Below are positions 1 to 26,255 of a DNA stretch of 32,000 nucleotides, piece by piece. Where the stretch lies: positions 1 to 32,000 of the forward strand of contig JAECRW010000003.1 in assembly GCA_016294985.1 (NCBI GenBank). The letters run 5' to 3'. A program made the position numbers and the translations under genes. The notes under the pieces were generated by a model. It was not told the DNA's origin, searched no databases, and saw only the letters and a list, made by a program, of their open reading frames with translations. Numbering within the stretch: position 1 is the first letter of the stretch; each line of letters begins with the position of its first letter. The DNA is from Candidatus Sifarchaeum marinoarchaea (lineage in GTDB: Archaea; Asgardarchaeota; Sifarchaeia; Borrarchaeales; Borrarchaeaceae).

Positions 1-1685
1 ATTATCACGAAACTGACGAAATAAAAATCAACTGTGATCCAGGACGTGTAAGACGTCCGCTAATGATTGTAGAGAATGGACAACCAAAGATTACTCCAAA
101 ACAAGTTGAAAAACTCATAAATGGAGAATTGAAATGGAATGATCTGATTTTAAATGGACTAATCGAATATCTTGATGCAGAGGAAGAAGAAAATGTGTAT
201 ATTGCGATTAGTCTAGAAGACCTTACACAATCGCACACACATCTTGAAATCGCTATTTCCACTATTTTGGGAATTTGTGCAAGTATTATACCCTTTCCAC
301 AGCACAATCAATCACCAAGAAATACTTACGAAGCGGGTATGTCAAAGCAAGCCCTTGGTTTATACGCCAAGAATTTTCAATTACGTGTTGACACCAGAGG
401 GCATTTCCTCCATTACCCCCAAGTTCCTCTTGTAAAAACACGAGCAATGGATGTAATTGATTTTGATAAATGTCCCGCAGGACAAAATTTTGTTGTTGCA
501 ATCCTCAGTCATGGTGGCTATAATATGGAAGATGCTCTCATAATAAATAAGGCATCGCTTGAAAGAGGACTTGCGCGATCTACATTTTTCCGATGTTATG
601 ATGTTGAGGAGAAACGCTACCCAGGCGGACAAGAAGATCGTTTTGAAATACCTGGTAAAAATGTAAGAGGATATAGAGTTAGTGAAGCTTATAGGCATCT
701 CGCTGACGATGGGCTTATCGAACCAGAGACTGATGTTTCTGGAGGAGATGTTATCATAGGGCGCACTAGCCCTCCCAGATTCTTGGAAGAATACACAGAA
801 TTCGAAATGCCAGCACCTATTCGTAGGGAGACTTCAATCAGCCTGCGCCACGGCGAACGGGGCACTATTGACACAGTAATTGTTACAGAAACCGTTGATG
901 GAAATCGATTAGTGAAAGTAAGAGTCCGAGACCAGAGGATTCCAGAACTCGGAGATAAATTTGCCTCAAGGCACGGACAAAAAGGAGTCTTAGGAATTAT
1001 CGTTCGGCAAGAAGACATGCCCTTTACGGAAGATGGGGTAGTTCCCGATTTGGTAATCAATCCTCATGCAATACCTAGCAGAATGACAGTAGGACAAATA
1101 ATTGAAGCCATATCCAGCAAAGTAGGTTGTATTCAAGGCATAAGAAAGGATGGAACTGCATTTTCTGGGAGTGAAGAAACACTACAAGAGGAAATGAGAA
1201 ACTCTGGCTTTGATCATAGAGGTCTAGAGAGTATGTATAATGGTATGACAGGGGAAAAATTCGAGGTAGATATCTTCATTGGAGTAGTTTATTATCAGAG
1301 GCTCCATCACATGGTTGCTGACAAACTCCATGCCCGAGCAAGAGGACCTGTCCAAATATTGACTAGACAACCCACCGAAGGCCGTGCAAGAGAAGGTGGA
1401 CTTCGTTTTGGCGAAATGGAACGAGATTGTTTGATAGGTCATGGTGCAGCACTATTACTAAAAGAACGTCTATTAGACGAGTCCGATAAGACTGTAGTAA
1501 TAGTTTGTGACGAATGCGGAATGCTAGCAGTACAAGATCGCTCACGAGATCGTTATTATTGTCCAATATGCGGTGACAAAACAACTGTGAGCCGTGTAAC
1601 TATGTCATATGCGTTTAAATTATTACTCCAAGAATTAATGAGTCTTGGAATTTCTCCACGTTTAAGATTAAAAGAACCTGCCTGA
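1..1685 (+). CDS. rpoB: DNA-directed RNA polymerase subunit B, C-terminal part (5'-truncated by window edge; B' if the gene is split)
   Basis: Frame 3 is open from nt 3, so [20 protein letters not shown] precedes the tracked Met at 63. Conserved beta-subunit blocks are present: [63 protein letters not shown]. There is a C-terminal CxxC...CxxC zinc ribbon. rpoA1 follows 14 nt downstream. Confidence 0.96.
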
Positions 1686-1699
1686 GAGGGAAAAATAGA

Positions 1700-5526
<3,827 letters not shown>

Positions 5527-5835
5527 ATGGCGGATATAGCGAAAAGTATTCAAATCGCAGTAAAAACGGGTAAAACTATATTAGGAGCTAATGAATCTAT
5601 AAAAGCTGTTAAACATGGAGATGCAAAACTAGTTATACTTGCAGCAAACACTCCATCAACAATAAGAAATGATATTATACATTATTCTAAATTATCGAAA
5701 GTACCAACATTAGAGTTTGAAGGATCCAGCTTAGATTTGGGGTTTATTTGTGGTAAACCATTCTTAGTATCGGTTGTATCGGTTCAAGAACCAGGTGATT
5801 CAGATTTACTCAATTTATTGGGGGGCAATATTTGA
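5527..5835 (+). CDS. rpl30e: 50S ribosomal protein L30e
   Basis: 102 aa with the L30e pattern (AVKTGKTILGANESIKAVKHGDAKLVILAAN...GKPF). Its ATG directly abuts the rpoA2 TAA. This is the conserved position between rpoA2 and nusA. Confidence 0.9.
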   Translation: MADIAKSIQIAVKTGKTILGANESIKAVKHGDAKLVILAANTPSTIRNDIIHYSKLSKVPTLEFEGSSLDLGFICGKPFLVSVVSVQEPGDSDLLNLLGGNI

Positions 5836-6257
5836 GTAGCGTTAAAATAACAAGCGATGAAATCAAGTATATTGCATTATTTGAAAACATTACAGGTGCC
5901 ATCACAAAGGATGTTATTATTGATGATGACCGTCTGATTTTTGTAGTCAAAGAGGGGGATATAGGGAGAGCTATTGGGAAGCGTGGGATAAACATAAAAA
6001 GAGCCAAGGACATGCTACACAGAAACATCGACATTGTTGAATACGCAGATTCTGAGGTTGAGTTCATCAAAAACACTCTGGCGCCTGCTCGGATTAAGAG
6101 TGTAAGCGTTTCAGAAAAAAAAGAGCGGAAAGTAGCTATTGTAAATGTTGAACCCAAAGACAGAGGTATTGCAATAGGTAAAAATGGAAAAAACGTTGCA
6201 CGTGCACGCCTTCTTGCAAAAAGATACCTCAATATCGATGATGTAATAATTTCATAA
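5832..6257 (+). CDS. nusA: Archaeal NusA-like transcription termination/antitermination factor (two KH domains)
   Basis: 141 aa with two GxxG KH signatures (IGKRGINIKRA, IGKNGKNVARA). The TTG start overlaps the L30e TGA (tTTGA). GGGGGG lies 6 nt upstream. Confidence 0.9.
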   Translation: MSSVKITSDEIKYIALFENITGAITKDVIIDDDRLIFVVKEGDIGRAIGKRGINIKRAKDMLHRNIDIVEYADSEVEFIKNTLAPARIKSVSVSEKKERKVAIVNVEPKDRGIAIGKNGKNVARARLLAKRYLNIDDVIIS

Positions 6258-6296
6258 CCTCTTGATGGCGTAGATCAGAAAAGGTGGTATTATAAA

Positions 6297-6740
6297 ATGC
6301 CAGGAAGCAAGGCACCAAAAGGAGAATTTGCCGCAGGATTATTAACACGTAAGAGAAAAAAGTTTAGATGGAAAGATCGCTATTACAAACGAAGACAATT
6401 AAAGCTTGACATTAAAGCAGATCCATTGGAAGGAGCGCCTCAAGCACGGGGTATAGTTTTGGAAAAAGTAGGTATCGAGTCCAAACAACCGAACTCAGCG
6501 ATTAGAAAGTGTGTTCGTGTTCAGCTGATAAAAAATGGAAAGCAAATAACTGCCTTCTTACCAGGAGACGGCGCACTTCTTTATGTAGATGAACATGATG
6601 AAGTAATAGTGGCGGGCATTGGTGGGTCTAAAGGTAGAAGTATGGGTGATCTTCCAGGAGTTAGGTGGAAAGTTACTCAAGTTAATGGTGTAGCGTTAGA
6701 TTCGTTGATATTGAAAAAGAAGGAGAAACCTATCCGGTAA
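6297..6740 (+). CDS. rps12: 30S ribosomal protein S12 (uS12)
   Basis: 147 aa containing [20 protein letters not shown] and GDLPGVR blocks. Position in the cluster is conserved. Confidence 0.95.
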
Positions 6741-6777
6741 ATGCTTCTTCATACTAATTCAAGGAGATGGAATAACG

Positions 6778-7371
6778 TTGTCAGATAAAAAACAAAAAGG
6801 TGGGACTTCTGAGATACTTCTATTTGGCAGATGGTCAACCGATGGAATAGAAGTCGAAGATCTTGGGTTAAAAAGATATATCTCTTTAAAGCCTGTAATC
6901 GCGCCACATTCAGGAGGCCGCCACGAACACCATCGCTTTCGAAAATCACAAGTATCAATTGTGGAGCGATTTATAAATAAATTAATGCGCGGCGGACGTA
7001 ATACTGGCAAAAAGATGAAAATAACTAAGGCCATAATGGTTGCCTTTGAAATTATTAATTTACGAACCAAAGCAAATCCTGTTAAGATTTTGGTAAGAGC
7101 TGTAGAAAATAGTGCGCTTCAAGAAGAAACAACCCGCATTTCCTATGGTGGTATTGTATATCATCAAGCAGTTGATGTTGCACCCCAAAGAAGGGTCGAT
7201 CTGTCTTTACAGTTTCTGGCTCAAGGAATAAAAAAGGCTAGTTTTAGTACTGTGAAGTCATTTGAAGAATGTGTTGCTGAAGAATTGATTGCAGCTGCAA
7301 ATAATGATACACGAAGTTTTGCGATTAAAAGACGCCAAGAAAAAGAGCGAATTGCATTGTCTGCACGTTGA
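6778..7371 (+). CDS. rps7: 30S ribosomal protein S7 (uS7)
   Basis: 197 aa with the LLFGRWS N-terminus and the typical uS7 C-terminal region. It follows S12. The start is TTG 6778, with in-frame ATA 6772 an alternative. Confidence 0.95.
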   Translation: MSDKKQKGGTSEILLFGRWSTDGIEVEDLGLKRYISLKPVIAPHSGGRHEHHRFRKSQVSIVERFINKLMRGGRNTGKKMKITKAIMVAFEIINLRTKANPVKILVRAVENSALQEETTRISYGGIVYHQAVDVAPQRRVDLSLQFLAQGIKKASFSTVKSFEECVAEELIAAANNDTRSFAIKRRQEKERIALSAR

Positions 7372-7437
7372 GTCAAAGTTCGGTGCGTGTGGACATTTAC
7401 CACTTGTAAACATTAAAGTAATTTGTATTAGTTCACC

Positions 7438-7461
7438 AGCTTGTTATCTCACAAGCTTTTT
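7438..7461 (+). terminator. Hairpin plus T-run downstream of S7
   Basis: AGCTTGT (7438-7444) and ACAAGCT (7451-7457) form a perfect 7-bp inverted repeat with a 6-nt loop. A TTTT(T) run follows immediately, 67 nt after the S7 stop. Confidence 0.35.
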
Positions 7462-7477
7462 AAAACGAATTTACAAT

Positions 7478-7497
7478 CTTTAAAAGAATATAAATCA
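7478..7497 (+). promoter_or_regulatory. TATA-like elements upstream of EF-1alpha
   Basis: ctttaaaagaatataaatc lies 60-80 nt upstream of the ATG at 7558, with SD GGAGG at 7546-7550. Placement is plausible for an archaeal TATA box plus a short SD-bearing leader. This rests on sequence only. Confidence 0.25.
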
Positions 7498-7557
7498 ATA
7501 AATTCAATACATTAGAAACTACCTTAGAACAACTAGAAAAGGTTTGGAGGAAAGGAT

Positions 7558-8859
7558 ATGTCAAAATCCGGAAAACCACATATGAACCTTGTGATTATTG
7601 GACATGTTGATCATGGCAAATCTACGCTTGTAGGACATCTTCTCGTCCTAACGGGAGCTATTGACGAGCGAACTATTGCAAAGTATGAAGAAGACGCTGA
7701 TAAGATTGGAAAGGGAAGTTTCAAATATGCATGGGTACTGGACAAGTTAAAAGAAGAACGTGAACGTGGCTTAACTATAGATATCGCATTTTGGCAATTT
7801 CAGACACCCAAATACTACTATACTATTATTGATTGCCCGGGCCATAGGGACTTCGTAAAGAACATGATTACTGGAACCTCACAAGCTGATGCTGCTATCC
7901 TCGCGGTATCAGCCCGTAAAGGCGAGTTCGAAGCTGGAATCGGCAAAGGCGGTCAGACCGTTGAGCATCTTGTGCTTGCAGCTACTCTAGGTGTCGATCA
8001 ATTCATTGTTGCTGTTAATAAGATGGATGTTGCAGATTGGAGCCAAGATCGGTTTGAAGAGATCAAAAGCAATGTTGAGAACGTCTTCAAATTAATTGAA
8101 AAAGAACTTGATATGAAAATTACACGCTTCTACATTCCAGTATCGGCTTGGACTGGCGATAATATAACTAAAGCGAGCGATAATATGGGATGGTTCAAAG
8201 AGAATACGATCCTTCAGGCTTTGGATGAAATGAAAATTCCACCGCAGCCGACCGATAAACCGCTTAGAATTCCAATTCAGGACGTCTATACTATCACTGG
8301 TGTGGGCACTGTGCCCGTCGGCAGGGTTGAGACTGGTGTTCTCAACGCAGGTGATAAGATCCAAATTGAGCCTGTCTCAAAAGTGGGTGAGGTAAAATCT
8401 ATAGAAATGCACCACGAGCAGATGCCAAAAGCAATGCCCGGCGACAACATCGGATTTAATCTCAAAGGAATTGCTAAATCAGAAATTCGACGTGGAGACG
8501 TAGCAGGAGACACTAACAACCCGCCCAGTGTAGCAAAGGAATTTACTGCACAGATATTCATATTGCATCATCCAACTGCAATTGCTGCAGGATATACTCC
8601 AGTTATACACGCACACACAGCTCAAGTTGCATCTACCTTCCTAGAACTTCAAGCAAAGATTGACCGAAGATCTGGAGAAACAGTTGAAGAGAATCCGCCA
8701 TATCTGAAAACAGGAGACGGTGCAATCGTAAAATTAGTACCCACAAGACCACTTTGTATCGAAGAATATGCAAGCCTTCCTCAATTAGGTAGGTTCGCTA
8801 TAAGAGATATGGCTAAGACAGTAGGTGTAGGAATCGTAAAGAATATAGTAAAACGGTGA
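7558..8859 (+). CDS. tuf: Translation elongation factor 1-alpha (aEF-1A)
   Basis: 433 aa with GTPase motifs GHVDHGKST, DCPGHRDF and NKMD. Domain II/III blocks are conserved. A strong SD is present. Confidence 0.97.
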   Translation: MSKSGKPHMNLVIIGHVDHGKSTLVGHLLVLTGAIDERTIAKYEEDADKIGKGSFKYAWVLDKLKEERERGLTIDIAFWQFQTPKYYYTIIDCPGHRDFVKNMITGTSQADAAILAVSARKGEFEAGIGKGGQTVEHLVLAATLGVDQFIVAVNKMDVADWSQDRFEEIKSNVENVFKLIEKELDMKITRFYIPVSAWTGDNITKASDNMGWFKENTILQALDEMKIPPQPTDKPLRIPIQDVYTITGVGTVPVGRVETGVLNAGDKIQIEPVSKVGEVKSIEMHHEQMPKAMPGDNIGFNLKGIAKSEIRRGDVAGDTNNPPSVAKEFTAQIFILHHPTAIAAGYTPVIHAHTAQVASTFLELQAKIDRRSGETVEENPPYLKTGDGAIVKLVPTRPLCIEEYASLPQLGRFAIRDMAKTVGVGIVKNIVKR

Positions 8860-8932
8860 TTTTTTTCTAGGAAGCCTGCGAAGGCTTTCTCTATCAATTT
8901 TTATTATTTAAATTATAAGAAGAGGCAAGAAG

Positions 8933-9241
8933 ATGGTACAGCGAGCACGTATCAGACTGTTAGGTAAAGACACAACAGAACTGCAGAATGTTTGTAATCA
9001 ACTCAAAGAAATCGCTCAGAAGACCGGCGCGCGATTTAATGGACCTATTCCACTGCCAACGAAAAAGATAAAGATTCCTGTAAGGAAAACTCCTTGTGGC
9101 GAAGGTACGCCAACATGGGAACAGTGGCAAATGAGGGTTCATAAACGGATCGTTATACTCGATGCGAATGAAAGGACAATGTCACAAATTATGAGGATTA
9201 GGGTGCCAGATTCAATCTATATCGAAATAGAACTTGTGTAA
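8933..9241 (+). CDS. rps10: 30S ribosomal protein S10 (uS10)
   Basis: 102 aa containing ARIRL, GPIPLPTK and MRVHKR blocks. It occupies the canonical position after EF-1alpha. Confidence 0.95.
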   Translation: MVQRARIRLLGKDTTELQNVCNQLKEIAQKTGARFNGPIPLPTKKIKIPVRKTPCGEGTPTWEQWQMRVHKRIVILDANERTMSQIMRIRVPDSIYIEIELV

Positions 9242-9598: not shown

Positions 9599-10240
9599 TT
9601 AAAGGAGTGCCTTACACTTTTCAACACCTTGCGTGGCATCGACAGCGTAGCCATCTACTCCTACTTCTTTAGCAAAATCTTCTGTTACAGCAGCACCTCC
9701 GATTATCACCTTTACCTGATCTCTGAGCCCCTCTTTTTCTAATTCTTCAACAACACTCTTAATTTGATCTACTGTGGACGTTAAAAGAGACGACATAGCC
9801 AAAATATCTGCTTTCGTTTCTTTGAGGGTTTCAATAAATTTAGATGCAGGTACATCAACGCCCAGGTCAATAACTTCGAATCCTGCTACCTTTAATAGAG
9901 AGATCATGATGTTTTTTCCTATGTCGTGAATATCGTCTTTGACTGTGCCAAACAAAATTTTACCGTGTGCCTTAGGCGTTTCACCTTCTGCAAGATACGG
10001 TTTGAGGACTTCTATATTCTGGCTCATAATCTCTCCCGCTATCAACAACTCAGTAACAAAGTAGACTCTTTCTTCATACAATCTCCCCACTTCCGCCATG
10101 CCTTCTGTCATACAATTAATAATTTCCAGTGGATCCATTGATTTAAGTGCATCTTCGACAATTATTTTGGCAGGCTCGGGATCTACATCAATGATCGCTT
10201 GTTTTACTTTTTCACATAATTCGGGATTTGCCTTTTCCAT
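9599..10240 (-). CDS. Corrinoid (cobalamin-binding) methyltransfer protein, MtaC/MtbC/MttC-like
   Basis: 213 aa. An N-terminal helical cap is followed by a B12-binding Rossmann domain with DxHxxG (DDIHDIGKN), SxL (SSLLTST) and GG (IIGGAA). SD TAGGAGGA lies upstream of the ATG, 17 nt after the upstream gene. Confidence 0.85.
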   Translation of the reverse strand: MEKANPELCEKVKQAIIDVDPEPAKIIVEDALKSMDPLEIINCMTEGMAEVGRLYEERVYFVTELLIAGEIMSQNIEVLKPYLAEGETPKAHGKILFGTVKDDIHDIGKNIMISLLKVAGFEVIDLGVDVPASKFIETLKETKADILAMSSLLTSTVDQIKSVVEELEKEGLRDQVKVIIGGAAVTEDFAKEVGVDGYAVDATQGVEKCKALL

Positions 10241-10257
10241 TAATTGTCCTCCTAAGC

Positions 10258-11298
10258 TTACTCTTTTGAATACTGTCGAGCCACTTCTGTTATAGCTTTC
10301 AAATTCTCATTTTTTACTCTAGTTGGAATCGCACATTCGGGAGCAAGAATCTCAACACCAGCTTTAGCAGCATAAAGCGCTTCTTTTTTTACTTCTTCAG
10401 GGCTTTTGTATAGCAGAGTTTCGGGATTGTTAATATTTCCCATAAGTGAAATCTTATTTCCTACAATCTTTTTTGCTTCAACTGCATCTACTTTAGAGTC
10501 AAAATGAAAACAATCAAATCCGGCTTGTGCAATGTATGCCAGGCGATCTGTCGTATTACCACAGATATGTAGGACGATAGGAGCTCCAATACGTTTAGTG
10601 ACATCTTGATGGACTTCCAATAAAAACTTACGATACGTTTCAGCGCTCACTAGATCTCCTGTCGCATGGTCTGCCAGCATTATTACGTCTGCCCCCGCAT
10701 CTACTTGTGCCTTTCCAAATTCAACTGTTAACTCTTTTAGAACCTCCATGAAGCCGTGTAATCGCTCTGGGTTTAGACGCACTGACATCAGAATATTTTT
10801 AGTGTCTGCGACGTGATACGAGAGTGTCCAGGGTCCCATGACTTTGCCAACAATCGCAACTCTGTCGCCATATTCATGATGTAGGATGTTAATTGCATCG
10901 AGCAAGGCTCTTGGTGCCGTTCTTTCGAGGAAATCATCGGGGATGGTCACTTGATCAGGTTCTTCCCAGAATTTGATGTTTTTGCCGTCCGGCATGCGAT
11001 CTGTGTCCCCCCAATCCATTTCTCCTGGAAGTGGATCGCCATTTTCTATGAATGCAGCGCCTTCAACCCATACGGAAAAGTACGGTAGAATGCAGTCGTA
11101 ATCAAGCATGGTATGCGCAGTGGCGGCTAATTTTGCCATCTTTTCTGCATCATAGTGTGCCTCAGGGAAGTATGTTCCACTTGCATCCATACATTCTACA
11201 GTTACTACACTGGTTACTGAGCCGACTGGTAACCTATCAACTCTTCCGCCAAACAATCCGGATAAAAATCGCCTTTTAGGTGTCATCCATTCGCTCAT
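10258..11298 (-). CDS. URO-D-family methylcobamide:thiol methyltransferase (MtaA/MtbA-like MT2)
   Basis: 346 aa with a URO-D/MtaA-like fold signature. It carries the H-x-C...C zinc motif known from MtaA/MtbA (VLHICGNTT and LAPECAIP). It is apparently co-transcribed with the corrinoid protein. Confidence 0.8.
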   Translation of the reverse strand: MSEWMTPKRRFLSGLFGGRVDRLPVGSVTSVVTVECMDASGTYFPEAHYDAEKMAKLAATAHTMLDYDCILPYFSVWVEGAAFIENGDPLPGEMDWGDTDRMPDGKNIKFWEEPDQVTIPDDFLERTAPRALLDAINILHHEYGDRVAIVGKVMGPWTLSYHVADTKNILMSVRLNPERLHGFMEVLKELTVEFGKAQVDAGADVIMLADHATGDLVSAETYRKFLLEVHQDVTKRIGAPIVLHICGNTTDRLAYIAQAGFDCFHFDSKVDAVEAKKIVGNKISLMGNINNPETLLYKSPEEVKKEALYAAKAGVEILAPECAIPTRVKNENLKAITEVARQYSKE

Positions 11299-11368
11299 TT
11301 TATGTCCCTCTTAGATCATTAAAGGAAATAATCGAGTTAAGAAGAGAAATCATTATTTGGATGAATAA

Positions 11369-11383
11369 AGAGATATTATCTCT
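11369..11383. promoter_or_regulatory. Perfect palindrome in the divergent methyltransferase promoter region
   Basis: AGAGATA-T-TATCTCT has 7-bp arms and a 1-nt centre. It lies 69 nt upstream of the 11452 ATG and 71 nt from the 11298 start, directly beside the A/T-rich tttttaaaattata. Confidence 0.3.
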
Positions 11384-11451
11384 GTGCTTTTTTAAAATTA
11401 TACTGAAGATACATTTCAGAATGATTTTCATAACACCGCTGAGGGAAAAAT

Positions 11452-12096
11452 ATGGAGACAACTATTTTAGACAACATTGCAAACTCGTTAGGGAATCTTG
11501 AAAATGGTGAAAAGCTTACAGAACTCTTGAGGAAAGCTCTCGAAAGTGAAATATCCATGGCGGATATTATCGAAAAAGGGCTACGAAAAGGATTGGAGAC
11601 TATCGGCAACAAATATGAAGGCGGGGAGTATTTTCTTTCCGAACTTCTATATGGTTCCGACCTTACTAATGCTGTTTTTGAAATATTAAAACCGTATTTG
11701 CAACAGCTTGAAGCAGATGTGAAAGGCATAATCGTTACTGGGACAGTAAGAGGAGATATGCATGATATCGGAAAGAACGTTTTCAAAATGTTTGCAGAGG
11801 CATCTGGTTTCAAGGTAGTTGATCTCGGTGTAGATGTAGATCCTGAATTATTCATCAACGCTGTTGAAGAGAATAAAGCAGAAATACTCGGATTATCTGC
11901 CTTACTGACTACAACTATTTCTGAGATGAAAATCGTGTTAGAAAAACTAAACTCAGCGGGAATAAGGAATAGAGTTCGGGTGATACTTGGGGGTAATGCT
12001 GTGTCAGAAGAATTTGCTGAAGAGATTGGCGCTGATGCCGCAGTTTTAGATGCCGTGCAAGGAGTACAACTTTGTAAGGAGTGGATGGGAGAATGA
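11452..12096 (+). CDS. Corrinoid (cobalamin-binding) methyltransfer protein, second paralog
   Basis: 214 aa with the same architecture as 9599-10240: GDMHDIGKN, SALLTTT, ILGGNA. SD GAGGG lies upstream. Confidence 0.85.
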   Translation: METTILDNIANSLGNLENGEKLTELLRKALESEISMADIIEKGLRKGLETIGNKYEGGEYFLSELLYGSDLTNAVFEILKPYLQQLEADVKGIIVTGTVRGDMHDIGKNVFKMFAEASGFKVVDLGVDVDPELFINAVEENKAEILGLSALLTTTISEMKIVLEKLNSAGIRNRVRVILGGNAVSEEFAEEIGADAAVLDAVQGVQLCKEWMGE

Positions 12097-13268
12097 GTAC
12101 AAATAGAGAGCGGTTTAAACAAGTAATCCATCATAAGAAACCAGATGTTCTTCCGTGGATCGAGATAATCTTCGAGGAGACCCTTATGAGGTGGTTTAGG
12201 GAAGGGCTTCCTGCGGATGAAGTTACAGTCATAGGGTACGAGATTGGTCGCGGCGGGACTTTTTTTACAAACTGGCCAATCTTTAAAGGTTTTGGTAAAA
12301 TTTACGACCGTTTCGGCTGCCAGTCTTTCTTCGGTTGTATGCTACTCATAGATGTTGGACCAGTTCCAAGATTTAAACAAAGAAAAATTGGTGAAACTGA
12401 GAAGCATGCTGACTATCTAACCGAAACTGGTGCTATTGTAAGACGACCGAAGAGGGCTGATTTTGAGTTTTATGCTATGCCACAGTTCATTGAATTCCCT
12501 GTAAAAGATAAAAAAACTTGGGAAGAATATAAGAAGCGTTTAAACCCAGAAGACCCTCGAAGGTATCCTAAAGACTGGGAAACAGAAGGCTATATTGATC
12601 TCTTTGAATCTTATCATAAGGGGCCTACCTTGCTCAGGTTTAACGGGTTTTACGGTTTTGGCGCAGAGTTAATGAGTATTCCTAGATTTGTTACAGCCTT
12701 TTACAAAGATCCAGAATTAATACATGAAATGCTTGAGCACTGGGAATATTTTACAATCGAAACAATCAGGGAAGCTGTCGAGACCCTGAAAGATAGAATT
12801 GATGTAATTTATTGGTGGGAGGATTTAGCAGAGAGACACGGTCCTTGCATCTCACCAAAGCTTTTTAGAGAATTCTTCCTGCCGCACTATAAGCGTGTTA
12901 CAGGATTTCTAAAAAAGAACGGAATCGATCGGATAATGTTCGATAGTGACGGAAATCTCAATCCACTACTCGATGAAATCATTGAGGCGGGAAGTACTGG
13001 CCTCTGGCCGCTAGAAGTTAATGCAGGCATGGATGCGCTCGAAATTAAGCAAAAATATGGCGATAAATTATTTCTAATTGGAAATCTCGACAAAAGGGAA
13101 CTTGCCAAAGGCGGAGAGGCTATGAGAAAAGAAGTTGATTCCAAAGTCCCGATATTAAAAGAAATGGGTGGATATATACCTAGTGCGGATCACGTAATTC
13201 ATGTGGAATTTTCTCTTGAGCACTTCAGAGAATACAGCGAATATATGAAGAAATCTTGTATAATATAG
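12093..13268 (+). CDS. URO-D-family protein lacking the MtaA zinc motif (candidate corrinoid-dependent methyltransferase)
   Basis: The tracked ORF starts at GTG 12081. ATG 12093 forms an ATGA overlap with the corrinoid gene stop and follows GGATGGGAGA, so I prefer it. C-terminal blocks (FDSDGNLNPLLDEIIEAG, LIGNLDKRELAKG, GYIPSADHVI) resemble clostridial/archaeal URO-D family proteins found next to corrinoid proteins. Confidence 0.7.
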   Translation: MSTNRERFKQVIHHKKPDVLPWIEIIFEETLMRWFREGLPADEVTVIGYEIGRGGTFFTNWPIFKGFGKIYDRFGCQSFFGCMLLIDVGPVPRFKQRKIGETEKHADYLTETGAIVRRPKRADFEFYAMPQFIEFPVKDKKTWEEYKKRLNPEDPRRYPKDWETEGYIDLFESYHKGPTLLRFNGFYGFGAELMSIPRFVTAFYKDPELIHEMLEHWEYFTIETIREAVETLKDRIDVIYWWEDLAERHGPCISPKLFREFFLPHYKRVTGFLKKNGIDRIMFDSDGNLNPLLDEIIEAGSTGLWPLEVNAGMDALEIKQKYGDKLFLIGNLDKRELAKGGEAMRKEVDSKVPILKEMGGYIPSADHVIHVEFSLEHFREYSEYMKKSCII

Positions 13269-19925: not shown

Positions 19926-22079
19926 CTATATGCGCTCTCTAACCAGATTATCGGCTAGTTCAGTAAACTTTCTAAAAGTCTTGTCTTTAATGCGGCCATT
20001 TTGGTGTAAAGTTTCCAGGCCCTTTTTTAATTCTGGTACAAATTCATCTTTCGAAAGCAGGTTTTGTGAACTTAGGGCTTTTTTAACGGCCTCGTTTAAT
20101 TGTTTCTTTGAAACAAACAATCTCTCTAATTTCTCTTTCAGGTCATAAAATGAGTCAGTTGCATAAATCCGCAAGTTTTTGTTGATTAGTTTTTCAGATC
20201 CAGAAGCCATTGAAATAAACTGCATAGGTGGATAAACCAGAAGACGTGATGTATCCTGAGTAGGCTCTATAAATTGTGAAAGATAAATTGGGACTTCAAC
20301 TTTCTGTGTCTGTTTAAACTTTAAAAGATTGGAGAGTATAAATTTTTTAAATTGTTCTTCTTCTTCAAGAAGTGTTTCTTTTTTGCCATTAATGAACTCG
20401 ATAAGTTGATTGGTTTTCTCTGCGATCTTTTTTGCTATATCGACTAACTCGTTAATTTGGTTATCTCTTTCTGTTTCTATCTCAGAGAGCTGCTTTTGTT
20501 GTTCGTTCTTTAGTCTTGCTAATGATTCGGTTCTTTCTGCTTCTGTTTTCTCTATAACTTCTCTTTGTTCTTTCATTAGACGTTCAATGTTTTCATTTTG
20601 TTCCTTTGTTACACGATCAACATGCTCATTCAAATCATTTATCTTCTTTTTTGACTCATCTTCGATTGTGTTTATCTTCGATTGGGTATCTTTCTCCATA
20701 GCAGATAATTCTCTGCCACCATCCTTTATGCGGGATTTTAATTCTTTTATCTCGCTTTTGCTAGCATCTTTCATATGAGATTCCATTGAATTTGCTAGAC
20801 CACTTATCTGAATTTCAAGGATATCCTTTACGTCAGCAAATTGAAAGTTTTTTGCTTTTATCTCATCGTATTGTCCCTGAACTGAGCTTATCATATCGCC
20901 AAAGCGGTTTAATAAAGTTTCTAGAGTGCCGCCAATACTAGTTTTTAGGATATTAGTCGCATTTAGATCTCTTGCAGAAATCGTATCAGCATTCTTTTTT
21001 TCTTTTTCCTCTAAAACCATCGTAATTTGTCTATCAGTATCCTCTCTTAATCGCCTGAGGGTTTCTTTGTATTCGACTCTAGTGTCATCGAGATGGCGAG
21101 CAGTGCTTGATCTGGTTTCTACAAGCTTTTCATCCCATTCCTTCTTCTTAGCATCAATTTTCATTTGGGTGTTCTCTTTGGTTCGTTGAAGTACTTTACC
21201 ATACTTATTGTTCAGTTTTTCGATATTTTGCTCGATCTTGTTTGTGAATTCACTTCGTTTTCTCGAAATAAGAGCCTGTATGGTTGGTAAAGTCTTCATA
21301 TTTTCCTCAATGGTATGAAAGGCTTCATCAAAGATTGAAGTAACCTGAGATAATTCATCTTTTGAGATTTCGAGTGGTAACTCTGTAAATTGTGGGATTG
21401 ATCGTGGTTTTCTAAGCCAGTAAAACTCTGTAATATCTTCCAAATATTTAAGAGTGCTAAGAGTATATACAAGATACTTCTCAGCACTCAGATCTGCTAA
21501 GAAATTTTCAACACGTGTAAATGCACTAATGAAGTCAGAAATTTCAGATACTGATAACATACTTTCAAAATCAGTTAAAATTAATGAAGTCATGGTTTCA
21601 ATTGTCGTGGGCACGGAAAAGGTGTCAACCAATAATGCACCTGTTCTATAAGGCAATACCCAGATTGGGACGTGAAGTGCACAAATAGAGTCAAGAATTT
21701 CTTTTTTCTTTCTCTCATCTTCACACAACATGAATATTGATGCCAGTTCTGTATTGAGGTCTACTTCCGTAATCTTCCGTTCCTTATTTTCTAAGTAAGG
21801 AAACTTTTCAATCAAAAACGGCATCATTGTTTCAACTGCAAAGAGTTCTGAAGGTAGTGCTTCCTCAACTGGTGCAGATATTTTGTCAATTTGACTTGTA
21901 TAGGATCTACGAACGTTTAAATCTGGGTCGATGTCATATACAACTATATGGTCATCGTGTACGATTGTCTTGCTAAGAATAAACATACCTGGCGGGAGTT
22001 GTTCAAATTCTTCTTCTGAAACGTCCAAAGATTCCTGTTTTCCACACTTTGGGCAAGTGACTTTGAGATTATTCTTCAT
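19926..22079 (-). CDS. Large uncharacterised protein: N-terminal CPKC knuckle, globular region, ~270-aa E/K-rich coiled coil, C-terminal globular region
   Basis: 717-aa uninterrupted ORF with ATG preceded by GGAG. Residues ~290-560 are heptad-like and charged (e.g. KEQNENIERLMKEQREVIEKTEAERTESLARLKNEQQKQL). I could find no Walker A or other catalytic motif. Confidence 0.8.
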   Translation of the reverse strand: MKNNLKVTCPKCGKQESLDVSEEEFEQLPPGMFILSKTIVHDDHIVVYDIDPDLNVRRSYTSQIDKISAPVEEALPSELFAVETMMPFLIEKFPYLENKERKITEVDLNTELASIFMLCEDERKKKEILDSICALHVPIWVLPYRTGALLVDTFSVPTTIETMTSLILTDFESMLSVSEISDFISAFTRVENFLADLSAEKYLVYTLSTLKYLEDITEFYWLRKPRSIPQFTELPLEISKDELSQVTSIFDEAFHTIEENMKTLPTIQALISRKRSEFTNKIEQNIEKLNNKYGKVLQRTKENTQMKIDAKKKEWDEKLVETRSSTARHLDDTRVEYKETLRRLREDTDRQITMVLEEKEKKNADTISARDLNATNILKTSIGGTLETLLNRFGDMISSVQGQYDEIKAKNFQFADVKDILEIQISGLANSMESHMKDASKSEIKELKSRIKDGGRELSAMEKDTQSKINTIEDESKKKINDLNEHVDRVTKEQNENIERLMKEQREVIEKTEAERTESLARLKNEQQKQLSEIETERDNQINELVDIAKKIAEKTNQLIEFINGKKETLLEEEEQFKKFILSNLLKFKQTQKVEVPIYLSQFIEPTQDTSRLLVYPPMQFISMASGSEKLINKNLRIYATDSFYDLKEKLERLFVSKKQLNEAVKKALSSQNLLSKDEFVPELKKGLETLHQNGRIKDKTFRKFTELADNLVRERI

Positions 22080-22573: not shown

Positions 22574-23737
22574 ATGCGAAAGTGGAACAAATTTGCAGTC
22601 TTAATCCTCTCATGTATATTACTTTTCCAATTTGTATCTGTAACCGTAGCTCAAAGACAAACTGAGACTGTGAACGAGTACTATGAATATTCAGACTCAA
22701 ATGGATATCTTTGTAATCTTAGAGTAAGCTTATTTGGATTTCCAACAATTGAAAATCGAAAAGAAACATACACCGCCACATTAACCGTACAAAATCTTGC
22801 CTCAGATGTAGAAATAAGATTGAAAAGAATCAGTTGGGAAGTTGAAACTGACGATGATACTGAAGATGGTTCTGACGAAATTGACAATTCACTAAAAAAT
22901 ATTGGCGACTCATATGAGTTTCAATTCAATGTAAAGTCGATTTCCGATGAATATTCAGGTGATGCAACACTTACTGCCGAATTTAGGCACGACATTTATC
23001 GTGAAGGTAGTAAAAAAAAGCCTGATGAAAAGTCGTCCATCTCTGCTGATCTTGAGGTTTATGTAGTAGAGGAGGAAAACCCTAGTCCCACAAATCCCAG
23101 TGATGGGAATGGATTCTCTGGAAATACTCCGTCATTTAGAGCTATAAGTAACTTCTTGCCTGGATTAATAGTGCTCATTCTCATATTTGTAATAATAGGT
23201 GCCATTGCCCGAAAGAGGAAGCCCAGGCGTGAAAGCGCAATGATCCCTACAATAAGCACCACACAAATTGAAAGTTTGACTTATGATGAATTATTAGGAC
23301 GAAGAGAAGTTCTAGAAGAAGGATTAAGAAGAATTGAAACTCAATTGAATTCAGGTTTGCTCTCACCTCAACAATATATGGAGACTTATACAAAATATAG
23401 GTCTGAATGGATTAATGTGAACAGAAGGCTTTCTGAAGCGGGAATTAGTGTAAGTGATGATGAAAGTGAAATTGTGACACCCCCTTCAGTTGAAGATGTT
23501 GCATGTCCGTCCTGCGGTGTGCCTTATCCAAGCGAAACACTATTTTGTCCTAATTGTGGTGAAGAACGCGATAAATGTACTGTATGCTTATTACCAATGG
23601 AAGCTGGAAGTGTAATTACTAAGTGTCCACATTGCGGCGGGATTGCCCACAAAGATCATCTACAAGAATGGGTGAAAATAAAAGGATTTTGCCCAAAATG
23701 TAAAAATAAACTCACAGAATACGACCTAATTCAATGA
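22574..23737 (+). CDS. Type-I membrane protein with cytoplasmic zinc ribbon plus RING/PHD-like (C4H2C2) finger
   Basis: 387 aa. Signal-like N-terminus MRKWNKFAVLILSCILLFQFVSVTVAQ. TM helix FLPGLIVLILIFVIIGAIA (23153-23209) followed by RKRKPRR. CPSC-x10-CPNC starts at 23504. C-x2-C-x12-C-x2-C-x4-H-x2-H-x10-C-x2-C spans 23576-23701. Confidence 0.8.
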   Translation: MRKWNKFAVLILSCILLFQFVSVTVAQRQTETVNEYYEYSDSNGYLCNLRVSLFGFPTIENRKETYTATLTVQNLASDVEIRLKRISWEVETDDDTEDGSDEIDNSLKNIGDSYEFQFNVKSISDEYSGDATLTAEFRHDIYREGSKKKPDEKSSISADLEVYVVEEENPSPTNPSDGNGFSGNTPSFRAISNFLPGLIVLILIFVIIGAIARKRKPRRESAMIPTISTTQIESLTYDELLGRREVLEEGLRRIETQLNSGLLSPQQYMETYTKYRSEWINVNRRLSEAGISVSDDESEIVTPPSVEDVACPSCGVPYPSETLFCPNCGEERDKCTVCLLPMEAGSVITKCPHCGGIAHKDHLQEWVKIKGFCPKCKNKLTEYDLIQ

Positions 23738-24122: not shown

Positions 24123-25274
24123 ATGAATATTGAAGGGCATATTGATGAACTTCGAGCTCAATTTCCGGTCATAAAACGCTATACCTATTTGAATCACGCA
24201 GCGGTGGGACCTCTTCCGCAACGTGTGCTTGATGAAGTGAGTAGGATAAATCAAGATAAGGGGTACAGCGGAGGACTTCACTGGATGGATTGGGAGGAGG
24301 AAGCAGAAGAAACTCGAAAGATCATTGCAAGATTAATTAATGCACATCCCGAAGAAATTGCCTTCGTACAAAATACATCCGTAGGACTTTCAATCATAGC
24401 AAATGGATTAAATTGGGAAAAAACAGACAATATAGTCATAAACGATTTAGAATTCCCTTCAAATTTATTTCCCTGGCAAATTCAAGCAAAAAGACATAGA
24501 CTTGTAACAAAAACTGTACAAAATCGGAATGAAAAACTAGCTATGGAAGATTTCGAAGAAAAAATTGATAGGCATACGAAAATCGTGGCGGTAAGTCACG
24601 TACAGTTTAGCAATGGATTTAAAGTAGATTTACAACGTTTATCTAAGTTGGCACACGAGAATGGTGGATATGTTATAACAGACGCCGTACAAAGCCTTGG
24701 TCAAATGCCTATAGATGTTAAAAAATTAGACGTTGATTTCCTTGCAACAAGTGGATATAAGTGGCTGCTGTCGCCTATAGCTACAGGTTTTTTATATATC
24801 AAAAAGGATTTAATAGACGAAATCGAGCCATCTATTGTAGGTTATCGAACTGATGAGAATTATCACGAGTATTCCTATCGAACTATAAATCCTGCCAAAA
24901 ATGCACGCCGATTTGAGCATGGGCAGATTAATTTTCCTGGGATCGCTGGGATGCGAGCAGCAATTGAAATTCTTGAGAGTTTTGGCATTCATAATATCGA
25001 AAGACGAATTCGAGAACTAGTAGATCGCCTCATAATTGGCATTTCTGAATTAAAAGGGCTTAAAGTACTTTCATCTCTGAAACCAGAACACAGAAACGGC
25101 ATAGTCAAAGTCGGTGGTTTAGAAAGTCCAGATGAAGTAGTAACAAAACTCAAAGAGGATAATATCGTCATTTCCTCACGTGCGGGAGGACTCAGAATTT
25201 CACCGCATTTTTATAATACTGAAGGAGAAATCAAACAATTACTGGATGCATTATCTTTCCTCACTCAAAGTTGA
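24123..25274 (+). CDS. Class-V aminotransferase-fold PLP enzyme (cysteine desulfurase/selenocysteine lyase-like)
   Basis: 383 aa containing HVQFSNG, ITDAVQSLGQ and the PLP-lysine context ATSGYKWLLSP. SD AAGGTGAT lies upstream of the ATG. Confidence 0.85.
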   Translation: MNIEGHIDELRAQFPVIKRYTYLNHAAVGPLPQRVLDEVSRINQDKGYSGGLHWMDWEEEAEETRKIIARLINAHPEEIAFVQNTSVGLSIIANGLNWEKTDNIVINDLEFPSNLFPWQIQAKRHRLVTKTVQNRNEKLAMEDFEEKIDRHTKIVAVSHVQFSNGFKVDLQRLSKLAHENGGYVITDAVQSLGQMPIDVKKLDVDFLATSGYKWLLSPIATGFLYIKKDLIDEIEPSIVGYRTDENYHEYSYRTINPAKNARRFEHGQINFPGIAGMRAAIEILESFGIHNIERRIRELVDRLIIGISELKGLKVLSSLKPEHRNGIVKVGGLESPDEVVTKLKEDNIVISSRAGGLRISPHFYNTEGEIKQLLDALSFLTQS

Positions 25275-26255
25275 TGCAAATCGGTCAGTATGCCAATCGG
25301 ATTTTCGTGAGTGAGCAATTTTACCCTTTTTGCAGTATCCTTCGATTGTATCTCCTTGCAAATGCATTAACCGCTTTAGTATATTAATTACGGATCTTAC
25401 CTCAAAAGTATTTGCTGAAAAGCCTACTTGGTTGGAGATATATTTCCAAAGTTCTTCTTCTGATACTGCTATATTTTCGCATATTGTGGAGTTTTCAATT
25501 ATTTGAACAAATTGCGCAAGACGTTCAAATTTATCTAAGATTTTCAATGTTTTTTCGCCTTTCCCTGTGAGCTGATAATAGAGAACAAAAAAATCTTCTG
25601 GTAAAGGATTCGGTCCAGCCTTTACTACGACACCCCTTCTAGAAAGTTCTGAGAGGCGAGCTTGAACGCTTTTTTCGGCTAAACCAGTTATGTCGGCGAT
25701 TTCTTCGGCTGTCAATTTGAATTTTTCTGGATTTCCTTTAGTAAGGGCTTTTATAATTTCCGAATAATACGTAGGTAGTTTTTGCAAAGCAACTGTTGCT
25801 GTAGCATCTTTAATTTTGTATCTTATTCTTTCTGTTTGCACTATTTCTGCTTCTTTAAGTTGTCGCAACAGTATAGATGCAAATGTGCGTGAAACATCTA
25901 AGATTTTTTGCAACTGTTTGTTAGTTTTTGGTTCTCGGAGAGCGTTAATGCACTGTATTTTACCATTGACTTCCGAAATTTTCAACTTACCTAAAATAAC
26001 AACCGTTAAAACGCATATTGGTGTCGGTACACATGAATCGCCTGTTATTTCGACTAAATCTCGTCCTTGAAGTCTTAAAAGATATCTTGACAAAAATTTG
26101 CTACGGTATCGAGGAGCGTAATCAACAGTTTTCATAATGGTATCGATATCAGTGGTTCCATGCTTGTAGAGTCGATATAATACCTTTGCGCAAATATTAT
26201 TTCCCAGAGCTCGTATTGCTACTCCAGCAGAAACCAGAATAAGACCTCCTAGCAA
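25251..26255 (-). CDS. Protein with about four tandem winged-helix (MarR/ArsR-like) modules
   Basis: 334 aa. The repeated pattern is helix-turn-helix followed by a beta wing, e.g. TNKQLQKILDVSRTFASILLRQLKEAEIVQTE and LTAEEIADITGLAEKSVQARLSELSRRGVVVKAG. The start (TTG 26255) is uncertain. The 3' end overlaps the convergent aminotransferase gene by 24 nt. Confidence 0.6.
   Translation of the reverse strand: MLGGLILVSAGVAIRALGNNICAKVLYRLYKHGTTDIDTIMKTVDYAPRYRSKFLSRYLLRLQGRDLVEITGDSCVPTPICVLTVVILGKLKISEVNGKIQCINALREPKTNKQLQKILDVSRTFASILLRQLKEAEIVQTERIRYKIKDATATVALQKLPTYYSEIIKALTKGNPEKFKLTAEEIADITGLAEKSVQARLSELSRRGVVVKAGPNPLPEDFFVLYYQLTGKGEKTLKILDKFERLAQFVQIIENSTICENIAVSEEELWKYISNQVGFSANTFEVRSVINILKRLMHLQGDTIEGYCKKGKIAHSRKSDWHTDRFASTLSEER

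Follow-up and report, generated by a model that had tools for sequence, protein, structure and literature searches.

In eukaryotes, several transmembrane (TM) ubiquitin ligases (E3s), namely the protease-associated (PA) domain-containing PA-TM-RING ligases (RNF13/GRAIL) and ZNRF3/RNF43, are built in the order signal peptide, ectodomain, one TM helix and cytosolic RING finger. To our knowledge, work on the ubiquitin cascades of archaea has until now relied on RING proteins that are small and soluble. One of these belongs to an operon on contig 4 of Helarchaeota Hel_GB_B, which encodes a pro-ubiquitin ending in GGSPKN, an E2 and UEV-Vps23, and whose reconstituted E1, E2 and RING E3 ubiquitylated the steadiness box of UEV-Vps23 in vitro (bioRxiv 10.1101/2023.07.25.550441). 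For the small RING protein of Caldiarchaeum the residues I30, W58 and R69 are required for E3 activity, which is impaired by their mutation (PMC5654768). The gene described here lies at positions 22574 to 23737 of a 32,000-nucleotide stretch of Candidatus Sifarchaeum marinoarchaea (contig JAECRW010000003.1, positions 1 to 32,000; hereafter the window), and its product appears, from an inferred topology, to have the same order of parts as the eukaryotic TM-RING ligases.

From the sequence and from structural models we consider it moderately probable that the product of this gene is a membrane-anchored RING-type ubiquitin ligase. An initial annotation of the window, made from the DNA letters and their translations, had described a membrane protein with a cytoplasmic RING that resembles eukaryotic TM-RING ligases in its topology, and this core claim is supported by the analyses reported below; none of the outcomes that it had listed as refuting was encountered. 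The Borrarchaeia possess a ubiquitin/UEV-Vps23 cluster in which a JAB/MPN gene replaces the operon RING (bioRxiv 10.1101/2023.07.25.550441). Ubiquitin machinery is thus present in the lineage and, since it comes without an operon RING, the E3 of the Borrarchaeia is expected to be encoded elsewhere; the window protein would be a candidate for this missing E3.

Layout of the membrane-anchored protein

From the N- to the C-terminus the protein consists of a signal-like N-terminus, a beta-sandwich ectodomain, a stalk, a TM helix, the basic patch RKRKPRR, a helical hairpin, a zinc ribbon and a RING finger. The translation of the open reading frame (ORF), the hydropathy scan and the Cys and His positions reproduced the part list and the coordinates of the initial annotation exactly. 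The features are given below with the basis of each assignment (aa, amino acids; AF2, AlphaFold2; the hyphen in TVA-Q marks the putative cleavage site).

22574..23737, plus strand: complete ORF with ATG start, 387 aa, type-I membrane RING protein (ORF translation)
22574..22651, plus strand: signal-like N-terminus, aa 1-26, MRKWNK followed by a hydrophobic core and TVA-Q (hydropathy, orthologue conservation)
22652..23083, plus strand: acidic ectodomain, aa 27-170, nine-strand immunoglobulin (Ig)-like beta sandwich (AF2)
23084..23152, plus strand: stalk rich in P, S, N and G, aa 171-193, SPTNPSDGNGFSGNTPSF (sequence)
23153..23230, plus strand: TM helix, aa 194-212, and basic patch RKRKPRR, aa 213-219 (hydropathy, AF2)
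23276..23443, plus strand: helical hairpin, aa ~235-290 (AF2, linker profile)
23504..23557, plus strand: zinc ribbon CPSC-x10-CPNC (C311-x2-C314-x10-C325-x2-C328), aa 311-328 (sequence, profile matches)
23576..23713, plus strand: RING finger, aa 335-380 (zf-RING_2, PDB matches, AF2/Foldseek, conservation)

Two hydrophobic segments were detected in the hydropathy scan, aa 5-26 and aa 194-212 (FLPGLIVLILIFVIIGAIA). The N-terminal one belongs to a stretch of K/R residues, hydrophobic core and TVA-QRQ that agrees with the -3/-1 rule; the AQRQTET junction is unchanged in all orthologues, and a signal peptide would be cleaved after TVA. The second segment reaches a Kyte-Doolittle mean of up to 3.0 and corresponds to an AF2 helix of aa 188-212. 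Because RKRKPRR follows it directly, the last 175 residues would be placed in the cytoplasm according to the positive-inside rule.

The ectodomain (aa 27-170) contains 33 D/E versus 15 K/R residues and was modelled by AF2 as a nine-strand beta sandwich with a predicted local distance difference test (pLDDT) score of 80-91 over aa 30-163. The stalk behind it has pLDDT values below 50 and varies among orthologues. Using Foldseek, the ectodomain was matched to PolDIP2/ApaG, the TRAP luminal domains, the TMEM106B luminal domain, arrestin-N and Spo0M at E-values of ~1e-5 and with low TM-scores. The protein thus combines an Ig-like ectodomain and a single TM helix with a cytoplasmic tail made up of the hairpin, the zinc ribbon and a C-terminal RING-fold finger.

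The comparison with the PA-TM-RING ligases made in the initial annotation stands for the topology, as judged by hydropathy and AF2, but does not extend to the ectodomain: the Pfam scan of aa 27-170 returned no match and in particular no PA domain, and the fold is a different beta sandwich (ApaG/TRAP/arrestin-like). Orthology with the PA-TM-RING ligases was rejected for this reason (Pfam, Foldseek), and the likeness to eukaryotic TM-RING ligases is most simply interpreted as a convergent architecture. The RING domains of RNF13 and ZNRF3 are among the PDB matches of the window RING.

Full-length orthologues of the protein (n = 9; 59-100% identity) were found in Lokiarchaeia/Promethearchaeota-type bins, including 'Candidatus Borrarchaeum', and in a scan of species-representative genomes the nearest loci were those of Borrarchaeota bins.

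The zinc ribbon and the RING finger

The eight ligands of the finger (C335-x2-C338-x12-C351-x2-C354-x4-H359-x2-H362-x10-C373-x2-C376) span positions 23576-23701 and form a C4H2C2 pattern, in which a PHD-like spacing of ligands 3 and 4 is combined with a RING-H2-like sequence. In profile hidden Markov model searches the Pfam model zf-RING_2 (PF13639; curated cut-off 27.3 bits) exceeded its cut-off on the C-terminal 87-aa module (30.7 bits) and on a 145-aa fragment (29.1 bits), and came just under it on the whole 387-aa protein (26.9 bits). The alignment spans model positions 1-44 of 44, and end-to-end alignments were likewise obtained for 49 of 50 diverse modules of the family introduced below; the precomputed database annotation of an identical protein includes PF13639 as well. 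The top matches of a phmmer search of the PDB were RING-H2 ligases, i.e., RNF165/ARK2C, EL5, Arkadia, RNF38, AMFR and RNF13, and the family profile retrieved the same set at E-values of ~1e-7.

In the alignment with RNF165 the residues C335 and C338 take the positions of ligands 1 and 2, C354 that of ligand 3, H359 and H362 those of ligands 5 and 6, and C373 and C376 those of ligands 7 and 8, with W366 at the conserved Trp. A Gly occupies the canonical His-4 position, and the fourth ligand must therefore be supplied by C351, three residues before C354. The finger departs from the canonical C3H2C3 order, in which ligands 3 and 4 form C-x-H; it has C-x2-C there followed by four residues to ligand 5. 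Compared to the eukaryotic RING-H2 E3s (RNF165/ARK2C, Arkadia, EL5, RNF38, AMFR, HRD1), the window RING shares the fold and the motif CPxC[KR], and likewise has a hydrophobic residue preceding ligand 2 and a Trp following ligand 6; it differs from them in having CxxC instead of CxH at ligands 3/4, His instead of Cys at ligand 6, and a zinc ribbon ahead of the RING.

The finger had initially been described as an interleaved RING/PHD pattern. Its RING part was confirmed by zf-RING_2, the PDB matches and the fold, whereas the PHD part had to be dropped, since no PHD profile matched the window protein at E-values up to 10 and ligand 6 is a His; for a Helarchaeal relative only a partial PHD match (E 0.036) was obtained. 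Another candidate was Prok-RING_1 (PF14446), a prokaryotic RING family reportedly owed to Burroughs, Iyer and Aravind in 2011, for which Pfam describes forms linked to TM segments and gene neighbourhoods of ubiquitin-like type. This model matches 35 of the 50 family modules (best E 4.5e-9). Membership of the window protein was rejected, as it scored 15.7-20.2 bits against a cut-off of 29.1 bits and covered profile positions 4-33 of 54.

The RING had pLDDT values below 50 in the first full-length AF2 model, because the underlying alignment of only nine orthologues was shallow. When the C-terminal 87 aa were modelled with a 50-sequence alignment of distant relatives, a pLDDT of 87 was reached, and the model shows a beta hairpin in the C351/C354 region, followed by a helix that begins at H359-H362. 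In Foldseek searches this model was superposed on RNF165 (root-mean-square deviation 1.2 Å over 46 columns), Rad18 (1.3 Å over 53), the RING of TRIM37 (3lrq; 1.6 Å over 56) and EL5 (1.8 Å over 49), with further matches to RNF13, RNF38, RNF24 and TRAF6. The putative zinc site 1 would be formed by C335, C338, H359 and H362 and site 2 by C351, C354, C373 and C376, a pairing derived from the RNF165 alignment and the fold match. By its sequence and predicted fold the finger is a true RING of a variant type.

This model also bears on another possibility, namely that a surface sensor uses the tail as a generic zinc-ribbon domain for output or binding, which would contact a signalling partner or nucleic acid, consist of two sequential ribbons and be unconnected to ubiquitin. 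The Pfam models DZR, Zn_ribbon_3 and Zn_ribbon_6 score on par with zf-RING_2, one relative has a weak match to the archaeal two-component output domain TackOD1, and most of the Asgard relatives bear the GenBank name 'zinc ribbon domain-containing protein', all of which would agree with such a sensor tail. We nevertheless hold it to be highly improbable in view of the AF2 match to RING folds at 1.2-1.8 Å, which includes the helix bearing H359 and H362, the end-to-end zf-RING_2 alignments in 49 of 50 modules, and the HxxHLxEW helix and CPxC motif, which are kept in the family as in RING-H2 fingers. Two sequential zinc ribbons, the outcome against which the initial annotation had set a RING cross-brace, were rejected on the RING fold match and the end-to-end zf-RING_2 alignment.

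The pattern of twelve Cys and His residues in ribbon and RING is not a product of chance, because the ligands are conserved in the orthologues as well as in distant relatives. All 12 ligands are invariant in the nine orthologues. Among the 50 diverse modules both ribbon Cys pairs, C335, C354, H359, H362, C373 and C376 are invariant, and C338 and P374 are kept in more than 90%. Conservation, the lack of which among orthologues would have refuted the initial annotation, reaches far beyond the orthologues: in ~164 distant RING segments C354, H359, C373 and C376 are invariant, and C335, C338 and H362 are present in at least 97%. The unusually placed C351 is kept in 158 of 168 RING segments, with 'TPCC' variants having the Cys at position 353 instead.

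The putative E2-contact positions of the window RING are V337, W366 and P374, with K377 at the linchpin position. Position 337 is V or I in 164 of 170 segments, position 374 is P in 163 of 164, and position 366 is W in 143 of 164 and Y in a further 11. The putative E2-contact positions are thus conserved in the family. The counterparts of V337, W366 and K377 in the Caldiarchaeum protein are I30, W58 and R69.

A large Asgard family, its ubiquitin operons and its eukaryotic counterparts

In an exhaustive profile search of representative clusters at 50% identity, the module of zinc ribbon and RING was identified in 1474 representative clusters (304 at E <=1e-10) with proteins of 68-1864 aa, whereas full-length matches were obtained in the same search for one other cluster only. 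Word-indexed searches with the short C-terminal query or with its profile had yielded only 1 and 14 matches, respectively. All members for which a name or a genomic location could be obtained come from Asgard archaea (Borr-, Frey-, Sif-, Heimdall-, Thor-, Jord-, Hel-, Baldr-, Odin- and Promethearchaeota).

Architectures were counted for the top 145 representatives. Of these, 130 have a ribbon immediately preceding the RING, and the RING is nearly always C-terminal. At least one hydrophobic segment is found upstream in 97 representatives and exactly two in 54, as would be expected of proteins with a signal peptide and a single TM helix. Judged by these predicted segments, most of the family is anchored in the membrane. 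In long members the TM helix is preceded by DUF2341, right-handed beta-helix/NosD or bacterial Ig-like (Big) domains; other members are multi-pass or soluble, e.g., with PCI/winged-helix domains.

Some Heimdallarchaeota members of ~1006 aa bear the GenBank name 'E3 ubiquitin protein ligase'. The window protein is thus a membrane-anchored variant of an Asgard RING E3 family and not an unknown system. Two expectations of the initial annotation, that RING fingers are rare in prokaryotes and that the locus is a candidate for an undescribed system, have to be revised accordingly: with 1474 clusters, and most of the top 145 representatives membrane-anchored, RINGs of this type are far from rare among Asgard archaea, and some members of the family have already been called E3 ligases in GenBank. 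In the literature we found no paper describing transmembrane Asgard RING ligases. The complete Freyarchaeota chromosome CP147778.1 carries at least eight copies of the module (at the loci L009, L011-L014, L023 and L033 of our genome scan) with very different N-terminal regions, including surface proteins of 1000-1690 aa with DUF2341 and beta-helix domains.

In 8 of 31 genome loci, which belong to Hel-, Jord-, Frey- and Odinarchaeota, we identified proteins of 76-83 aa that consist of the RING only and have a ubiquitin gene and an E2 gene as neighbours. They have the same ligand pattern as the window RING and are 51-55% identical to it. At the locus of the Helarchaeal operon introduced above (L021) the RING-only gene is located at 4950-5180 with neighbours at 5209-5457 and 5665-6117 (ubiquitin, E2); the other loci with such RING-only genes are L027-L033. 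The ligand pattern and spacing of the Helarchaeal small RING finger E3 (srfp; Hel_GB_B contig 4) and of that of Caldiarchaeum subterraneum are identical to those of the window RING; the Helarchaeal protein is 52% identical to the window protein over aa 330-387, with the shared motif HxDHLxEW[IV]K[IV]KGxCPxC. On this sequence evidence the RING of the window protein belongs to the same family as the small RINGs of the Asgard operons. The srfp operon proteins are soluble, have 76-83 aa and adjoin ubiquitin and E2; the window protein, unlike these, is encoded outside a ubiquitin operon and carries in addition a signal peptide, an ectodomain, a TM helix, the hairpin and the zinc ribbon.

When ribbon and RING were considered together, the best PDB match of the family profile was the C-terminus of WDR19/IFT144 (E 3.9e-8), where module positions 4-84 were aligned to residues 1248-1327 with the same CxxC-x10-CxxC-x6-C spacing. 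The next matches were trypanosomatid/ciliate IFT144/IFT122, the GATOR2 subunits WDR24, MIOS and WDR59, and yeast Sea4, interleaved with RING-H2 ligases. Foldseek over ~80 columns also ranked WDR19/IFT144 first (E 6e-6), together with GATOR2 WDR24, WDR59 and MIOS; the PDB chains matched by the module (23504-23713) include 8fgw_C, 8f5o_F, 7uhy_C/D and 9dx0_A. The Pfam models zinc_ribbon_16 and zf-RING_16, which cover the C-termini of MIOS and WDR24/59, match 23 and 22 of the 50 modules, respectively. In both IFT-A (IFT144/WDR19, IFT122) and GATOR2/SEA (WDR24, WDR59, MIOS, Sea4) a ribbon is followed by a RING-like finger with spacing as in the window module; these versions differ in that they follow beta-propeller/alpha-solenoid domains and are often without site 1 and the Trp.

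The C-terminal domains of IFT-A and GATOR2 serve mainly in complex assembly. The tail of ribbon and RING could, in analogy, be a non-catalytic assembly module that keeps the membrane protein in a homo- or hetero-oligomeric scaffold by means of RING-RING or zinc-finger contacts and transfers no ubiquitin. Such a role would fit the whole-module matches and the two Pfam models just described, as well as the linchpin K/R, which is present in only about half of the family. We regard it as unlikely, since IFT144 is without site 1 and the Trp whereas the Asgard family retains the eight ligands, V/I, W and P, since RING-only members are encoded in ubiquitin/E2 operons, one of them an active E3, and since RING-H2 E3 ligases score equal to IFT144. 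The likeness may furthermore reflect convergence on a common ribbon and RING arrangement, because RCHY1, another protein of this arrangement, also scores with the family profile. No paper tying Asgard RINGs to GATOR2, IFT-A or protocoatomer proteins was found in the literature.

The helical hairpin, the proposed function and the gene neighbourhood

The two helices of the hairpin comprise aa 237-259 and 265-289 in the AF2 model. When the C-terminal 60 residues of the Helarchaeal UEV-Vps23 were used in tblastn searches, matches were obtained in the stretches that immediately precede the RING of Baldr- and Freyarchaeota paralogues, and the window hairpin matches the same pre-RING regions. A profile constructed from seven non-Borr pre-RING linkers scored 37.9 bits on aa 235-287 of the window protein (E 1.2e-11), which was its sole match among the six-frame ORFs of the window, 49.3 bits on aa 200-256 of the Helarchaeal UEV-Vps23 and 48.5 bits on a Baldrarchaeal hairpin-RING protein. 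The same region of the Helarchaeal UEV-Vps23 matches the Pfam model Vps23_core with 29.5 bits (cut-off 26.8) and the Baldrarchaeal hairpin with 24.1 bits, just under the cut-off; Vps23_core was also the commonest Pfam match among related linkers (5 of 12, best E 1.6e-4). These profile matches suggest that the window hairpin is likely homologous to the Asgard Vps23-core hairpin. An identity as SHOCT or GvpG was rejected, with only non-significant matches (E 0.017-0.07). Relatives of the hairpin are located as follows.

L021, 2823-3599, minus strand: hairpin relative
L024, 4440-5171: hairpin relative
L009 and L011, just upstream of 5001: hairpin relatives

In a Baldrarchaeota paralogue the hairpin is joined straight to the RING, with no zinc ribbon in between. 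The core of Vps23/TSG101 in ESCRT-I (endosomal sorting complex required for transport I) is a helical hairpin as well, and profile matches lead from the window hairpin by way of the Frey/Sif paralogues to the Vps23_core region of the Asgard UEV-Vps23; the window hairpin differs from the Vps23/TSG101 core in being fused between a TM helix and a RING and in having no UEV domain. The steadiness-box hairpins of Vps23, Vps28 and Vps37 build the ESCRT-I headpiece (PMC11188069). A role of the window hairpin in oligomerisation or in docking to Vps28-type hairpins is speculative.

The hairpin raises the question of whether the protein is chiefly an ESCRT substrate or adaptor, with the hairpin plugging into an ESCRT-I-like headpiece and the RING regulating only its own turnover. 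The likely homology to the Vps23_core region of UEV-Vps23, which is the ubiquitylated steadiness box (bioRxiv 10.1101/2023.07.25.550441), would speak for such an adaptor, as would the place of these hairpins in the headpiece. This seems very unlikely to us, given that the hairpin occurs in only 7 of the 145 representatives plus the Borr orthologues and that no Vps28 or ESCRT gene is found nearby. Because of this restricted occurrence we treat the hairpin as an accessory to the RING module and not as part of its core. A wider proposal, in which the tail couples a surface protein to ubiquitin and ESCRT-I as a forerunner of membrane-protein sorting and the module is also the ancestor of the C-termini of IFT-A, GATOR2/SEA and related coat-like proteins, is in our judgement quite unlikely.

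If the window protein is a membrane-anchored ubiquitin ligase, its RING would bind the Asgard E2~ubiquitin via the V337/W366/P374 surface, with K377 at the linchpin position, and the protein would ubiquitylate itself or nearby membrane-proximal proteins. The ectodomain would serve as an extracellular binding site, and the choice of proteins to be marked could depend on clustering or on the binding of a ligand or partner there. The hairpin could mediate oligomerisation or docking to steadiness-box proteins (Vps28, UEV-Vps23), and such docking would pass ubiquitylated membrane proteins to the Asgard ESCRT machinery.

Several observations weigh against the ligase and its proposed route: (i) no ubiquitin, E1, E2, JAB or ESCRT gene was found within the 32-kb window, (ii) the finger deviates from the RING-H2 consensus, because a Cys three residues ahead of ligand 3 takes the role of the canonical His two residues after it as ligand 4, and a His that of ligand 6, (iii) the linchpin position 377 is K/R in only 80 of 164 segments (49%), (iv) the best matches of the full module are the C-termini of IFT-A and GATOR2, (v) the fold of the ectodomain is generic and points to no ligand, and (vi) the link between hairpin and Vps23 is transitive via the Frey/Sif paralogues, with no Pfam match for the window hairpin segment alone and no eukaryotic Vps23/TSG101 among the PDB matches of the linker profile.

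These results indicate that Asgard archaea have expanded the operon-type RING into a large family, most members of which are fixed in the membrane and carry diverse extracellular domains. Should they be active ligases, membrane-level ubiquitylation, with which receptor down-regulation and ESCRT sorting begin, would be older than eukaryotes. New here are the probable kinship of the hairpin to the Asgard UEV-Vps23 and the likeness of ribbon and RING to the C-termini of IFT-A and GATOR2; both links provide testable hypotheses on how eukaryotic trafficking modules were assembled.

The neighbours of the RING gene in the window are genes for a coiled-coil protein, a tautomerase and an aminotransferase and housekeeping genes. 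The features considered are the following.

19926-22079, minus strand: 717-aa protein with an N-terminal CPKC motif and a long coiled coil, divergent from the RING gene
63-9241, all in one direction: conserved archaeal cluster of RNA polymerase B (C-terminal part), A', A'', L30e, NusA-KH, S12, S7, EF-1α and S10
9599-13268: B12-binding corrinoid protein and two URO-D/MtaA-like methyltransferase genes
25251-26255, minus strand: 334-aa protein with several weak matches of winged-helix/TrmB/HVO_A0261 type

The coiled-coil gene and the RING gene are separated by a 494-bp AT-rich spacer. The coiled-coil protein is 79-86% identical in Borrarchaeaceae relatives and thereby better conserved than the RING protein; it gave no informative family match and contains no steadiness-box-like hairpin. 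The gene order around the RING gene is the same in the relatives, including the divergent coiled-coil gene of 717-722 aa, and is uninformative on a link between the two genes because the whole 20-kb region is syntenic. The initial annotation had joined both genes into one candidate system. Beyond the region-wide synteny in one family nothing pointed to this, and a functional link was rejected, as co-occurrence of the genes is confined to Borrarchaeaceae loci with synteny across the entire region.

No RNA families were found in the window. Within the corrinoid cluster two opposed ORFs of unknown function overlap each other (11376-12134, minus strand, and 11452-12096, plus strand). The gene of the 334-aa protein overlaps the 3' end of the aminotransferase gene on the opposite strand by 24 bp, and its product has 274-334 aa in the relatives.

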